From a bacterium (GTDB lineage Bacteria; Patescibacteriota; Saccharimonadia; Saccharimonadales; SZUA-47), in the NCBI GenBank assembly GCA_009923445.1, contig RFTN01000004.1:2438-66437 (forward strand): a DNA stretch of 64,000 bases. The letters are read 5' to 3'. The notes under the pieces are model-generated. The model was not told the DNA's origin. It made no database searches and was given only the letters and a program-made list of their open reading frames with translations. This document shows, piece after piece, positions 55,637-58,499 of this stretch (position 1 is its first letter; each line of letters opens with the position of its first letter). The position numbers and the translations under genes are program-made.

Positions 55637-55664
55637 GGTTTAAATTCCTTATCCTCAGCCAAAT
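55637..55664 (+). repeat. tRNA-3'-end-like motif, copy a
   Basis: 'ggtttaaattccttatcctcagccaaat' has a T-loop-like segment followed by '...CCNCAGCCAAAT'. Confidence 0.5.
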
Positions 55665-55773
55665 TGATTATTCAGCTAATACAACCAAACCTCATATCTG
55701 GAAGTTGAAAAGTTCGAATACCCTTATCTCCTAGGAAAAGTTACTCATTCCTGACTCAAAACCAAAAAACCCG

Positions 55774-55802
55774 TTGACATAAAGTTAATCTTTAGTTAAA
55801 CT
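55774..55802 (+). promoter_or_regulatory. putative promoter of the Phd/RelE operon (leaderless transcript predicted)
   Basis: TTGACA (55774-55779), a 17-nt spacer, then TAAACT (55797-55802). The ATG at 55809 is 7 nt downstream of the -10. The spacer contains the near-palindrome 'aagttaatctttagttaaactt'. Confidence 0.55.
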
Positions 55803-55808
55803 TAGTGC

Positions 55809-56036
55809 ATGAGTACAAATAAATCTGTTAGCCTTAAAGAACTACGCGAACAGTTCCCTAAGTATATTGAAGCTATTTCTAAGGGACAAAGCTTTACGGT
55901 AGTTAAACGATCAAAACCTATTTTTCAGTTAAACCCAATCAGTGACGAAGGCGATTGGCAAACTATTGCTGATTTTACTACCATCGAAGATAATGGCGTT
56001 AAAGCTGAAGATGTACTGGCAGTACTAGAGGCATAA
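55809..56036 (+). CDS. type II antitoxin, Phd/YefM family
   Basis: 75 aa. 'VSLKELREQFPKYIEAISKGQSFTVVKRSKPIF' is typical of the Phd/YefM N-terminal fold. Confidence 0.75.
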   Translation: MSTNKSVSLKELREQFPKYIEAISKGQSFTVVKRSKPIFQLNPISDEGDWQTIADFTTIEDNGVKAEDVLAVLEA

Positions 56037-56042
56037 TTTATT

Positions 56043-56288
56043 ATGGCTGATAAGATAAAAAAGCTTTTAGCCAAACTTAAATCTCAAGAGCGTGAATTAG
56101 TTAAGTTGTTGATATTGCGAGTCAAATTAGACGATACCCTAGGGCTAGATATTAAGCAACTAAAAGGTCATTCTGATCTTTTTAGAGTACGAAAGGGAAG
56201 GTTAAGAATTGTATTTAGAAAAGATGCAAACAGCTTTTTAATTGTAAGAATAGACCGCCGGAACGAAAAAACTTACAAAGATCTTTAA
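56043..56288 (+). CDS. type II toxin, RelE/ParE superfamily
   Basis: 81 aa. 'LKGHSDLFRVRKGRLRIVFRKDANSFLIVRIDRRNEKTY' matches the RelE/ParE core pattern. It lies 7 nt after the antitoxin gene. Confidence 0.75.
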   Translation: MADKIKKLLAKLKSQERELVKLLILRVKLDDTLGLDIKQLKGHSDLFRVRKGRLRIVFRKDANSFLIVRIDRRNEKTYKDL

Positions 56289-56307
56289 AACAAGTTCAGC
56301 CAGGATT

Positions 56308-56335
56308 TATATATATATATATATATATATATATA
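56308..56335. repeat. (TA)14 dinucleotide microsatellite
   Basis: Uninterrupted 'ta' x14 immediately after the toxin gene. Confidence 0.95.
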
Positions 56336-56346
56336 TTATCTACAAA

Positions 56347-56374
56347 AGTTAGAATCCATCATCCCCAGCCAAAT
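56347..56374 (+). repeat. tRNA-3'-end-like motif, copy b
   Basis: 'agttagaatccatcatccccagccaaat'. Confidence 0.55.
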
Positions 56375-56540
56375 TTGTTTTATAGTATTTTCATCTGTTA
56401 TTTCGGTTTTGATTTTTCGGTTATTGTGAAATAATTCAATCATTTGTAAAATCCTTATCTTTTAATTAAGTTCGAATCCTTTATGCCCTTTTACGGCTAC
56501 CCATATATATGCTTAAGTAAAAATCTGCTAATATAATCCT

Positions 56541-56690
56541 ATGAAGAAATATGATTTTTTAATTCTATTAGTAGTTTCAGCGTTTTTCGGATTTTTTATA
56601 GCAACAGCAAAAGACAGGGCTAGGTATGTTATTTCGATCTTACCCGTAATCGCTGTAATCATTTTAGCTTTTAGACAGAGAAAGAGTTAA
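56541..56690 (+). CDS. possible small hydrophobic peptide (49 aa)
   Basis: 'MKKYDFLILLVVSAFFGFFIATAKDRARYVISILPVIAVIILAFRQRKS' has two predicted TM segments. It is below the track's size cutoff and has no clear RBS. Confidence 0.3.
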   Translation: MKKYDFLILLVVSAFFGFFIATAKDRARYVISILPVIAVIILAFRQRKS

Positions 56691-56849
56691 GGTAAGTTCT
56701 TCTAGAGATCCATTCCTTTAGTATTGCTGTCGGACTAGCGTGTCTTAACTAGAAAGCACCGTTCCATCGGGATACTTTCTTATTAATAGTCATCACAGTC
56801 CGTCATTATGGTTTCCTTTTTCAAACATTGTGAAGAAGTTCATGAACTT

Positions 56850-56903
56850 GTAAATCCTCATCTGTAAAAGTTCCATTAACGTCCTGCCTCCCCGGCCAAA
56901 TTG
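56850..56903 (+). repeat. tRNA-3'-end-like motif, long variant, copy d
   Basis: 'gtaaatcctcatc|tgtaaaagttccattaacgtcctgcct|ccccggccaaattg' is the same ends as the short copies, with a 27-nt internal segment. Confidence 0.7.
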
Positions 56904-57035
56904 AATTTCAACTAGTCCACCAAACTTTCTTATATGCTGATGTTTTGTTGTTTTTTAATTATGATCAGTGAGCTACCTATATAGGTAATGCCTTATATTG
57001 AAACTTTGTATAGTTACTGATATACTTATAAAGTT

Positions 57036-57947
57036 ATGAACTACCAAGAATATCTAAAATCAATCATTAAAGCGTCAGGCTGGTCTCAGGAGCAACTTGC
57101 ATCGCAATTGGGCGTAACTTTCGTAACTGTAAATTCCTGGATAAATAGTAGATCTAAACCCAGAGCAAAAGCACTGGTACGTATAGAAAAACTCTATTTC
57201 GACACTGTTGGTACCGAAACGGTAGATACTAATATACTCGCTAAGCTAAAAGCTCAGGCCCTAAAGAGCAAAATTACCCCTCAGCAGCTAGTAAGCAACA
57301 AAGAATTACTTGATAAACTAACACTTTACTTAACCTATCATACGAATACTATCGAAGGTAGTACTATGACATTATCTGATGTCGGGGATGTTATCTTTGA
57401 TCGCAAAGTATTGTCTAACCGCACGGCAATTGAACAGGCAGAGGCACGCAACCACCAGGCAACACTCCATTGGTTAATAGATTTACTAAATCAAGATAAA
57501 AAATTAGTAATAAGCGAAGGACTTATATTAGATACCCATTTGCGACTTATGAATGGAATTATTAGTGATGCCGGTAAATACCGTAACCATGCAGTTAGGA
57601 TTCTAGGCTCGAGGGTGGTATTGGCAAACCATTTAAAAGTTCCTGAACTTGTTAAGGAACTTAGTGGGGACGATTCGCTAAAGTACGATCTGATCTCCAA
57701 ACTAGCTCGAACACATGCACAATTTGAGCAGATTCACCCTTTTAGCGATGGCAACGGTCGAACGGGTAGATTGATCATGCTTATTCAGGCCCTAATTGAC
57801 AGTAAGGTTCCGCCCCTAGTGCGTAAAGAACGCAAGTTTGCATACTATAAGGTCCTTGAAATTGCTCAAACAAAAGGTATTTATGAGCCTCTAGAATTAT
57901 TTATTGCTGAATCTATGTTATTTAGTAACGAGCTCCTCAGTAGTTAA
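57036..57947 (+). CDS. Fic-domain protein with N-terminal XRE-type HTH
   Basis: HTH 'SGWSQEQLASQLGVTFVTVNSWINSRSKP', Fic motif 'HPFSDGNGRTGRL' and an upstream 'TNTIEGS' (S/TxxxEG-type) helix. Confidence 0.85.
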   Translation: MNYQEYLKSIIKASGWSQEQLASQLGVTFVTVNSWINSRSKPRAKALVRIEKLYFDTVGTETVDTNILAKLKAQALKSKITPQQLVSNKELLDKLTLYLTYHTNTIEGSTMTLSDVGDVIFDRKVLSNRTAIEQAEARNHQATLHWLIDLLNQDKKLVISEGLILDTHLRLMNGIISDAGKYRNHAVRILGSRVVLANHLKVPELVKELSGDDSLKYDLISKLARTHAQFEQIHPFSDGNGRTGRLIMLIQALIDSKVPPLVRKERKFAYYKVLEIAQTKGIYEPLELFIAESMLFSNELLSS

Positions 57948-58011
57948 AGAGCCGTCTTCCGTAGAGTCATCGAGCAGTTTCTGGATTTCTTCTATATCAT
58001 CAACGTTCAGA

Positions 58012-58060
58012 AGATCCTCATCTGTAAAAGTTCCATTTACGTTCTGCCTCCCCAGCCAAG
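58012..58060 (+). repeat. tRNA-3'-end-like motif, long variant, copy e
   Basis: 'agatcctcatctgtaaaagttccatttacgttctgcctccccagccaag' has about 43/46 identity with copy d. Confidence 0.7.
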
Positions 58061-58105
58061 CATAAGCATTATACACACAACGAAATTTATGCTAGTCTAA
58101 AACAC

Positions 58106-58282
58106 ATGAAAGAAAACATCCCTACTCCAGATTCTAATGCTACGTCAGAAAATATTACTGATTCCATCGAAGCTCAAAGTTTACCGCTAATAAGACTTAT
58201 CCCTTTACCTAGGACATTGGCGCTTGGTGAGCAGATGGAGCCTGGAGTTGCTTATACTCCTCGCATTACTATTCCAAGATAA
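58106..58282 (+). CDS. possible small protein (58 aa)
   Basis: 'MKENIPTPDSNATSENITDSIEAQSLPLIRLIPLPRTLALGEQMEPGVAYTPRITIPR'. It is followed by a strong terminator and is below the track cutoff. Confidence 0.3.
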   Translation: MKENIPTPDSNATSENITDSIEAQSLPLIRLIPLPRTLALGEQMEPGVAYTPRITIPR

Positions 58283-58304
58283 AGTTGCGAAGTACGTCTA
58301 CTAA

Positions 58305-58317
58305 GGGCAGCCAAATT
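58305..58317 (+). repeat. tRNA-3'-end-like motif, short copy g
   Basis: 'gggcagccaaatt' lies directly before the terminator hairpin. Confidence 0.4.
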
Positions 58318-58345
58318 AAAAACCGTCCGTTTGGGCGGTTTTTAA
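58317..58345. terminator. bidirectional rho-independent terminator
   Basis: 'aaaaaccgtcc gttt gggcggttttt' has an A tract, a GC hairpin and a T tract. Confidence 0.75.
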
Positions 58346-58384
58346 TTTGCTTGAGTTGGAGGATTCGAATTCCGAGTGAGCATT

Positions 58385-58499
58385 CGGGGTGAAAACTGCC
58401 AGTGGCAGTTTGCAAGGCAATCTTCACTTGCAAACTAGTTTGCAAAGCAGAAGTTGCGGGCCTGCAGGATGCAGGTCGAATCCCTCATCCCCGGCCAGA
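58385..58499 (+). repeat. structured repeat element E3, ending in tRNA-3'-end-like motif (copy f)
   Basis: The order is 'cggggtga', H1 'aaactgcc agt ggcagttt' (58393-58411), H2 'ttgcaag...cttgcaa', H3 'ttgcaaac ta gtttgcaa', 'agca', then '...ggtcgaatccctcatccccggcca'. Confidence 0.7.

Follow-up and report, generated by a model that had tools for sequence, protein, structure and literature searches.

The stretch of DNA analysed here, referred to as the window, comprises 64,000 nucleotides (positions 2,438 to 66,437 of contig RFTN01000004.1, assembly GCA_009923445.1) from a bacterium of the order Saccharimonadales in the phylum Patescibacteriota. Towards its right-hand end lies an island of accessory genes in which a short motif resembling the 3′ end of a tRNA is repeated on one strand, and the rightmost copy of this motif belongs to a module built around a structured RNA element that we call E. 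From left to right the island consists of a truncated tRNA gene, a Phd antitoxin gene and its partner, small open reading frames (ORFs), a gene for an HTH-Fic protein, a 58-aa ORF, the ~ 190-nt non-coding module with E, and a tRNA 3′ end with its native flank. The cargo of the first unit (55809–56288, + strand) is a Phd/YefM-family antitoxin gene (55809–56036; PF02604, E = 1.2e-4; TIGR01552, 21.9 bits against a cut-off of 20.8 bits) and the overlapping 81-aa partner ORF (56043–56288), for which no family match was found in Pfam or NCBIfam. The HTH_3 and Fic domain protein of 303 aa (57036–57947, + strand; PF02661, E = 2.5e-17, and PF01381, E = 1.9e-9) has 3111 homologues at E ≤ 1e-20, and those whose source is named are from Saccharibacteria or Patescibacteria. 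The units of the island differ in kind, from a two-gene Phd pair through tiny ORFs and Fic to a module that is purely non-coding; their sizes are between 0.2 and 1.2 kb, and often they hold one gene or none.

The pattern CCYCRGCCAR has five matches in the window, at 55653, 56363, 56890, 58050 and 58489. All are on the + strand and within 55.65–58.50 kb, compared with a mean of 0.43 and a maximum of 2 in shuffled sequence. A repeat search grouped 55637–55664, 56347–56374, 56874–56901 and 58473–58500 into one 28-nt family with identities of 68–100%, and also found a 46-nt repeat pair, 56854–56899 and 58014–58059, with 93% identity. When the 25-mer at the 3′ end of tRNA-Gln was used with up to 7 mismatches allowed, the window matched only at 55637, 56347 and 58473, and there were no matches in 20 shuffles. 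The same-strand array proposed in a first-pass annotation of this DNA, made from the letters alone, is therefore real, with five strong copies where shuffles give 0.43, and in the window it is confined to this locus. Seven copies had been listed; five of these are strong, whereas 56445–56488 (the best part being 56470–56488) and 58305–58317 are short and weak, the latter gaining support from its context, since the palindromic hairpin found after intact tRNA-Gln genes in other genomes comes after it as well. The copies do lie between called ORFs, as had been said, with the exception of 58014–58059, which overlaps a 52-aa antisense ORF (57918–58076) accepted by the gene caller in one assembly.

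The sequence ...CCCCAGCCA is the textbook ending of a bacterial tRNA-Gln. We scanned one genome per species, 185,579 species in all, with the pattern GAATCCNTCATCCCCRGCCA and obtained at least 120 loci (designated here by L and a number), nearly all of them in Saccharibacteria, with some in Peregrinibacteria and Gracilibacteria and a few in other groups. Among the matches listed, about 100 end exactly at the 3′ end of a tRNA-Gln called by ARAGORN, mostly with the anticodon CTG. The consensus of the Saccharibacteria tRNA-Gln is TGGGGATTGGCCAAGTGGTAAGGCACCGGGTTCTGGTCCCGGTATCGGGGGTTCGAATCCCTCATCCCCAGCCA, ending in ...GGTTCGAATCCCTCATCCCCAGCCA. Together with the gene content of the window, these matches assign the DNA to Saccharibacteria or their vicinity. 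On sequence grounds the motif is the T loop, the 3′ strand of the T stem, the 3′ strand of the acceptor stem and the CCA of tRNA-Gln(CTG), so that the earlier reading of it as a tRNA 3′ end now has its matching tRNA. A tmRNA was rejected as the source of the motif, as the 3′ end ...CCCCRGCCA is of the Gln type and not the tRNA-Ala-like ...UCCACCA, and ARAGORN and Rfam were negative; a tmRNA or permuted tmRNA at 58355–58497 was rejected likewise on its Gln-type 3′ end and the lack of an ARAGORN or Rfam match.

The sole tRNA called in the window by ARAGORN and Rfam is a tRNA-Leu at 46668–46751. Between 55300 and 58800 neither program found a complete tRNA or tmRNA, even with the Rfam tRNA model at E ≤ 10. 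This agrees with the first-pass annotation in so far as the motif has no complete tRNA to go with it, but a 65-nt partial tRNA-Gln at 55597–55661 (+ strand) had been overlooked. It is a decayed, 5′-truncated tRNA-Gln(CTG) pseudogene covering tRNA nucleotides ~ 10–76, with the anticodon CTG at 55619–55621, and in blastn about 70 tRNA-Gln genes of Saccharibacteria align with it over 65 nt at 75–79% identity. The 17-nt stretch GGCACCGGGTTCTGGTC, which spans the anticodon loop TTCTGGT, is matched exactly in L010, L028 and L068. The last 25 nt of the pseudogene are the leftmost copy of the motif. Approximately the first 10 nt are missing and the T arm is decayed; neither ARAGORN nor Rfam calls it a tRNA and its fold is no better than those of shuffles. 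At the other end of the array, the orphan 3′ fragment TCGAATCCCTCATCCCCGGCCA (58476–58497, + strand) runs from T55 to CCA and has kept its native downstream flank: 58476–58523 matches the tRNA-Gln 3′ end and native flank of L030 with 91.7% identity over 48 nt, 26 of these bases lying beyond the fragment. Because this flank is conserved, the fragment is probably the original 3′ end of the tRNA-Gln gene.

In the orphan copies the similarity to tRNA ends at or just 5′ of the T loop, and the 5′ partner of the T stem could not be read in any of them, as expected for displaced 3′ fragments. AAATT directly after CCA is common to four copies, and the copies are decayed, with identities of 68–82%. The orphan AGTTAGAATCCATCATCCCCAGCCA (56347–56371, + strand) has 3 mismatches to the consensus 25-mer and lies 59 nt after the stop codon of the 81-aa ORF, with no T-stem 5′ partner upstream; immediately upstream of it is a (TA)n microsatellite of ~ 31 nt (56306–56336). 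A weak copy, GTTCGAATACCCTTATCTCCTAGGA (55712–55736, + strand), matches at ~ 19 of 24 positions with one inserted base and adds to those listed before. Two degenerate partial copies, AAATCCTTATC and GTTCGAATCCTTTATGCCC (56470–56488), make up the weak stretch 56449–56488 (+ strand). The first copy of the 46-nt repeat (56854–56899, + strand) begins with a half copy, ATCCTCATC, and ends in CCTGCCTCCCCGGCCA(A); it is the 68% member of the 28-nt family and its tRNA-like part is the acceptor 3′ strand and CCA only. The second (58014–58059, + strand; ...CTGCCTCCCCAGCCAA) starts 67 nt after the stop codon of the Fic gene, and at L252 an analogous fragment, GTCCCGTATCTCCAGCCA, follows a Fic homologue. 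On the minus strand, within 57918–58076 and 56820–56905, the 46-nt repeat reads ...W(L/P)GRQ(N/D)VNGTFTDEDL..., and the 52-aa ORF, which has a repeat copy at its start, is acidic and overlaps the end of the Fic gene; an acidic antisense reading likewise occurs after the Fic homologue at L252. This minus-strand reading may be a small protein or a translation artefact of a tRNA-derived repeat. There is also a second type of fragment, G(A/T)CC(T/C)G(T/C)(A/C)TC(C/T)CCAGCCA, consisting of the acceptor strand and CCA only, which is found at 56882–56899 and 58042–58059 in the window, at 5705–5722 (− strand) in L004, at 906–923 in L254 and at 4977–4994 in L252. It recurs in different genomes directly 3′ of unrelated genes and just before module hairpins.

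Comparison of the locus with a relative, which the first-pass annotation had proposed, placed the array in accessory DNA. A homologue of the neighbouring 198-aa protein, with 88% identity, is encoded on the 159-kb contig L004, where a DUF2177 gene lies 59 bp from it. Homology between the window and L004 covers 54879–55610 and begins again at 61472, with 55611–61471 missing in L004. Absent from a close relative, 55611–61471 is thus extra, accessory DNA in the window. The GC content of the island is 0.373 compared with 0.418 for the window. The 3′ end of the DUF2177 gene, which is on the − strand, occurs three times: as a 32-nt remnant (55573–55604, with the stop codon at 55573–55575; 90.6% identical to 59275–59306 and 61472–61503), as a 132-nt copy (59266–59397) and in the full gene (61472–61909). 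These three ends indicate that at least two segments entered at the 3′ end of the DUF2177 gene. The block from 55611 to ~ 59265, with the pseudo-tRNA, the units and the TspO gene, and a second segment reaching to 61471 both lie inside the duplicated DUF2177 3′ end.

The left boundary of the inserted DNA lies at the 32-nt remnant, which continues without a break into the ancestral intergenic region. The overlap of the remnant with the pseudo-tRNA is a 13–14-nt microhomology, CCA(A/G)GTGG(Y)AAGG, present in both the DUF2177 gene end and the tRNA D arm. A reading of CCAGGTGGAAGG at 55597 as purely tRNA D arm was rejected, as it is also the end of the DUF2177 gene and the two overlap. Neither inversion nor one crossover with a complete tRNA was accepted as the origin of the junction, for the reciprocal junctions that they predict are absent. 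The DUF2177 copies at 59266–59397 and 61472–61909 have a 9-nt downstream flank (ccctggcc...) in common, and the second inserted segment (59398–61462) holds a 64-aa ORF, a 203-aa ORF and an ATP-grasp protein. In L029, L030 and L118, DUF2177 genes are found within ~ 1 kb upstream of tRNA-Gln.

The same layout is found in other genomes. In L122, L124, L070 and L078 an intact tRNA-Gln is followed by one gene and then by a perfect 3′ fragment, the gene coding for a 328-aa Fic-domain protein in L122, an LD-carboxypeptidase in L124 and hypothetical proteins in L070 and L078. In the units of L122 and L124 the 28-nt tRNA ends are clean and E is absent. Four close homologues of the window Fic protein (77–85% identity) were looked up and correspond to six places, L250–L255. 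At L250 the Fic homologue lies 920 nt after a perfect tRNA-Gln end; at L252 it closes a 4.7-kb segment that extends from a tRNA-Gln(TTG) to two fragments, after which there is a hairpin homologous to 58318–58350 of the window; and at L254 a fragment-bearing module lies 96 nt upstream of it. No tRNA fragment was seen with the Fic homologues at L251, L253 and L255. Short tandem stacks of 3′ fragments occur downstream of tRNA-Gln in L053, L054, L074 and L100. Taken as a whole, these arrangements show very small units landing repeatedly at tRNA-Gln in this phylum, with no enzyme evident. The description of the array as att-type scars at a tRNA gene is accordingly upheld by the insertion relative to L004 and by the recurrence of the layout, including that with Fic.

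What the first-pass annotation missed is that the right-hand copy forms part of a separate and widespread RNA-element module. This module (58305–58497) is made up, in order, of a tRNA-end remnant, a hairpin, an inverted copy, a turn, the T-stem 5′ strand with T54, E, and T55 to CCA. It starts (58305–58349, + strand) with the remnant GGGCAGCCAAATT and a 17-bp perfect-stem hairpin (58312–58328 with 58333–58349, recorded as 94% complementary), the palindrome of which, 58312–58349, takes in the bases after CCA. The same arrangement of fragment and hairpin follows the intact tRNA-Gln in L100, L069, L043 and L120, and L252 has a homologous hairpin. Read against the tRNA consensus, 58350–58390 (+ strand) is a decayed inverted tRNA-Gln 3′ part (...TTGGAGGATTCGAATTCCGAGTG), a turn, and then in direct orientation the variable region, T-stem 5′ strand and T54 (CATTCGGGGT). 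The sequence TTGGAGGATTCG at 58357 was considered as an acceptor 5′ strand and rejected, as comparison with L100, L069, L043, L120 and the tRNA-Leu module described below shows it to be part of a decayed inverted tRNA 3′ copy. E itself (58391–58475, + strand) is an insert of ~ 85 nt between T54 and T55 of the tRNA-Gln frame, and R1, the covariance model that we built for E, scores 112 bits (E = 2.5e-30) for 58382–58484. The three hairpins of E are connected by conserved strands, namely GAAAA, UUUGCAAGG and CGGG. In the predicted fold of 58350–58500 the region 58350–58390 pairs with the 3′ fragment through a 12-bp closing helix; in a longer predicted fold most of 58476–58497 is unpaired and there is a shorter closing stem within 58386–58491 (z = −5.1).

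Homologues of the window E occupy the same position downstream of intact tRNA-Gln in L100, L120, L069, L043 and L018. Others are found inside 5′ partial tRNA-Gln copies upstream of intact genes (L086, L046, L122) and in tRNA-Leu frames (L004, L008). The window has a second module directly after its tRNA-Leu (46752–46906, + strand), with a hairpin at 46752–46791, the palindrome of which again includes bases after CCA, an inverted tRNA-Leu 3′ copy, a short variant of E (33 bits with R1) and the 24-nt fragment TCTCAAGTCCTTTCTCGCGCACCA at 46883–46906. A third copy of E (52901–52995, + strand; 59 bits, E = 1e-14) lies in the spacer upstream of an AAA-ATPase gene with no obvious tRNA frame. The tRNA-Leu of L004 has three tandem modules downstream and one upstream, four copies in a 20-kb locus, and the tRNA-Leu with its first module is 98.8% identical between the window and L004, compared with 71–89% for the neighbouring genes.

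We consider it likely that the copies of the motif are displaced 3′ ends of a tRNA-Gln(CTG) gene, stacked by serial insertion. Small incoming DNA segments would repeatedly have hit the tRNA-Gln gene in or near the T loop, each bringing its own copy of the tRNA 3′ part, so that with each insertion the gene would have been restored and the earlier 3′ end displaced further, along with the DNA downstream of it. Insertion would most likely have been by recombination within the common tRNA 3′ segment, whether by a site-specific recombinase acting in trans or since lost, or by homologous recombination of the Campbell type with circles bearing a tRNA; both the enzyme and the order in which events took place are our inference, and the 3′ fragments would now be without function. 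Serial insertion explains why the copies are on a single strand, why their tRNA identity has its boundary at the T loop, why the last copy has the native flank, and why the cargo is accessory and absent from the relative. Elements integrating in tRNA genes are known to restore the split gene and leave a displaced fragment (Islander, PMC4383910), and tRNA gene fragments are common in prokaryotes (PMC9897764). Features of this kind are known, and the array is best explained as one of them in miniature and, unusually, without an integrase; as such it is ordinary biology in an unusual setting.

A number of observations weigh against this explanation. The head of the array is a 5′-truncated pseudogene and not the intact tRNA-Gln that the classical model requires, and the functional tRNA-Gln of this genome was not located. 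How the head came to be joined to the remnant of a protein gene could not be reconstructed. The fragments at 56874 and 58034 match the tRNA in the acceptor strand only, within the longer 46-nt repeat, and units of only 0.2–1.2 kb are very small. There is no integrase or other recombinase in 55.5–59.3 kb, where Pfam and NCBIfam give only Phd, HTH-Fic and TspO for the ORFs, and none was found inside the single-gene units of L122, L124, L070 and L078. In 75 genomes, 150 ORFs lying no more than 3 kb downstream of tRNA-Gln were surveyed, and among their 25 commonest Pfam families the only recombinases were three large serine recombinases, with no tyrosine integrase family. Lastly, comparison at the DNA level with the 120 tRNA-Gln loci listed revealed no second location for any unit of the island; the E module and the motif recur there, and the window cargo does not. 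In the window as a whole, no recombinase was present among the best 25 of the 97 families matched by 50 ORFs, and the absence of an integrase from the island had been correctly noted from the start.

Among known systems, the closest are the genomic islands integrated in tRNA and tmRNA genes (Islander/TIGER; PMC4383910, PMC12424338). Like these, the window array shows insertion in the 3′ part of a tRNA with an incoming replacement 3′ end, a displaced fragment at the far boundary, same-strand fragments as left by repeated use of a site, and accessory cargo (toxin-antitoxin, Fic) absent from relatives. It differs in that its units lack an integrase and measure 0.2–1.2 kb, the head tRNA is truncated and dead, and the array sits inside the 3′ end of a protein gene. 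Of the features by which Islander recognises an island, a displaced 3′ fragment in direct orientation is present at the distal boundary and the island is absent from the L004 locus, while an intact regenerated tRNA at the proximal boundary and an integrase gene inside the island are both lacking. The tycheposons of Prochlorococcus, another organism with a streamlined genome, reportedly use tRNA genes as hotspots and form islands with partial tRNA repeats and small cargo modules, some of them without an integrase; they are said to be defined by particular tyrosine recombinases and replication genes. No such recombinase or replication gene was found at the window island, and the phylum is a different one. 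Searches of the literature, with incomplete coverage, gave no prior description of tRNA-Gln cassettes in Saccharibacteria. The finding points to tRNA-Gln as a landing pad in these ultra-small episymbionts, which have genomes of ~ 1 Mb and few recognised mobile elements, and integrase-less toxin-antitoxin and Fic units at this gene bear on how defence and addiction genes are acquired.

The first-pass annotation likened the array in its logic to an integron. Taken literally, this would mean that a recombinase encoded elsewhere in the genome actively captures promoterless single-gene circles at the T arm of tRNA-Gln, with the T arm as the analogue of attI and the tRNA-Gln-3′-end-like site as that of attC. 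The part of the likeness that stands is the row of small, co-oriented, mostly single-gene units, each ending in a repeat that resembles a recombination site; the same integrase-less layout in L122, L124, L070 and L078, the recurrence of Fic genes at tRNA-Gln in several genomes and the AAATT after CCA in four copies, which suggests related incoming elements, also favour such a platform. However, there is no intI and no candidate recombinase was identified. The repeats are derived from tRNA and are not imperfect palindromes with R″/R′ cores: attC sites (RYYYAAC/GTTRRRY cores) were not found in the island by reading of the sequence or in the list of inverted repeats, and outside the E module each copy is a tRNA 3′ end on one side with no arm to partner it, as the same annotation had recognised in saying that they do not look like attC. 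The gene-bearing units have no folded palindromic sites, the units are heterogeneous and none was seen to recur at the DNA level, identity to the tRNA begins at different points in different fragments, the copies are decayed (68–82%) and the tRNA that would serve as platform is dead. We therefore regard a cassette platform of this kind as unlikely.

A further possibility, very unlikely in our view, is that the fragments were made by the mechanism that makes the E modules, in which the tRNA 3′ end would be copied by snap-back or template switching, with the 3′ end of the tRNA or terminator possibly serving as primer for a polymerase or reverse transcriptase, and that the genes arrived separately. 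The modules do always duplicate part of the adjacent tRNA, the inverted complement of its 3′ end including CCA comes right after a mirror-armed hairpin, and copying by fold-back typically leaves such a direct–inverted–direct pattern. Gene-free stacks of modules exist in L004, L053, L054 and L074, and possible remnants of E (TGTAAAAGTTCC ... CCTGCC) precede two fragments. Against this, E is recognisable at only one of the fragments in the window, the gene-bearing units of L122 and L124 have clean 28-nt tRNA ends without E, and no reverse transcriptase or other enzyme is linked to E. The most improbable of the alternatives is that the copies are functional RNA signals (tRNA-like punctuation for RNase P, RNase Z or the CCA-adding enzyme, or else terminator-associated elements with a role in mRNA processing or stability), for although they are on the strand of the genes and downstream of ORFs, and the rightmost module is a genuinely structured RNA, outside the E module they have no 5′ partner for the acceptor or T stem, they are unequally decayed, the Rfam tRNA model is negative even at E ≤ 10, the first copy precedes a gene and the locus is absent from a close relative.

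Displacement by serial insertion thus remains our explanation of the array; the E module is the more consequential result. E is a structured RNA of ~ 95 nt, which in the window lies within the ~ 190-nt module. An alignment of 13 copies shows three hairpins, with 89% of the cells paired compared with 31–42% when the partners are slid, and 27 of the 32 pairs have changed on both sides. A scan of metagenomes with a pattern derived from E gave at least 120 loci, and with R1 there are 120 copies in 100 of the loci listed. In this larger set 95.8% of the cells are paired (28–49% when slid), 29 of the 32 pairs show double changes and one G·U pair is kept in 98 sequences; the alignment was fitted to R1, so that these figures lean towards the structure, but the margin is very large. 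Conservation of this G·U pair points to selection acting on the RNA, or at any rate on the sense strand.

There were at least 129 matches to the pattern, and the counts that follow are among the 129 listed. An intact tRNA on the same strand lies within 400 nt of 83, and one on the opposite strand of 2; the remaining 44 have no such tRNA, 20 of them being at contig ends. E adjoins tRNA genes of 14 specificities, starting at a median of 139 nt upstream of the tRNA (34 cases) or 156 nt after the tRNA start (49 cases). It is usually inserted at T54/T55 and sometimes in the D loop or anticodon loop, or nested in another E. In L152, L153, L220 and L226 copies are nested or head to tail with a second E at the place of the third hairpin of the first, and L226 has up to five copies within 900 nt upstream of one tRNA-Gln(TTG). 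The partial tRNA copy at L046 differs from the adjacent gene by paired changes, from which the partial copies look imported and not locally duplicated. E is thus an abundant, recurrent, covarying element associated with tRNA genes and widespread in Patescibacteria.

No family in Rfam 15 matches E at the level of covariance models. No protein gene is linked to it either: when 601 neighbouring ORFs from 120 loci were clustered, no family was found at more than 8 loci, and of the ten largest clusters six are housekeeping and four have no Pfam match, with no recombinase or reverse transcriptase among them. A phage origin was rejected after a scan of viral contigs gave one chance match, inside a coding gene. 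We found no description of E in the literature searched, which included a recent paper on tRNA introns of Patescibacteria, although coverage was incomplete and novelty is not proven. Those introns are comparable in being RNA elements that interrupt tRNA gene sequences in the same phylum, but they are more than 200 nt long, self-splicing, situated in the anticodon loop and interrupt a functional gene, whereas E is ~ 95 nt, mostly at T54/T55, and in a partial copy beside an intact gene. The inverted tRNA 3′ complement after the mirror-image hairpin is suggestive of copying by fold-back or from a primer; the data on E point to no polymerase or reverse transcriptase.

The consensus of E consists of GGGUGAGAA, a hairpin, CGCAAGG, a hairpin, CGGGG and a hairpin with a GAA loop. 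Its succession of closing helix, GGUGA(G/A)AA, hairpin, YGCAAGG and two hairpins resembles P11, AAGGGUGAAA, P12, GGAGCAAGGCC, P13 and P14 of Escherichia coli rnpB. In RNase P, the double T-loop module that docks on the tRNA elbow has as its core signature the pentanucleotides UG..A and AG..A flanking a helix (PMC3664808). E has UGAGA or UGAAA (at least 90% conserved) and then YGCAA where RNase P has AGCAA, a comparison made at the level of sequence. The second loop of E begins with C or U and not A, and E is ~ 95 nt long, multi-copy and embedded in tRNA-gene fragments, in all of which it is unlike RNase P. RNase P models of Rfam gave no match to E at E ≤ 10, and R1 scored at most 4 bits on E. 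coli rnpB. The likeness of the loops to the elbow-docking module, at the level of motifs, provides a lead; the commonest insertion points of E, the T loop and the D loop, form the tRNA elbow. RNase P RNAs of the candidate phyla radiation (CPR) often lack P13 and P14 and occasionally P12 (PMC8172020).

Tentatively, and with more doubt than confidence, we suggest that E represents a class of non-coding elements targeting tRNA genes, with loops that mimic the elbow-docking module of RNase P, spread or maintained without a linked protein gene. The RNA might bind tRNA elbows, to target insertion or as a free partner resembling the S domain, and the tRNA-Gln scar array would then be partly a by-product. 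Should E prove to be an RNA, mobile or regulatory, that recognises the structure of tRNA, it would belong to a new kind of element associated with tRNA; it would also confound tRNA annotation in CPR genomes and offer a clue to how tRNA is processed in this phylum, whose RNase P RNAs are aberrant (PMC8172020).

Two further observations concern related units and the surroundings of the island. In L074 (4101–4731) and L040 (2269–2588), which come from metagenome-assembled genomes labelled Clostridia, tRNA-Gln is followed by one to three tandem units of ~ 180–245 nt, each with the same 20-nt tRNA-Gln 3′ end and a covarying hairpin (GTGCC-AGT-GGCAC/GCAAC-AGT-GTTGC). This hairpin looks like a shorter variant of E, and the label reflects either a wider host range or mis-binned contigs. 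In the window, ~ 8 kb on the 3′ side of the tRNA-Leu module (46908–54878) is without counterpart in L004, which has different genes there. It contains carotenoid-type genes (polyprenyl synthase, SQS_PSY and amine oxidase), small ORFs and the AAA ATPase, and the whole stretch from the tRNA-Leu to DUF2177 is a variable region.

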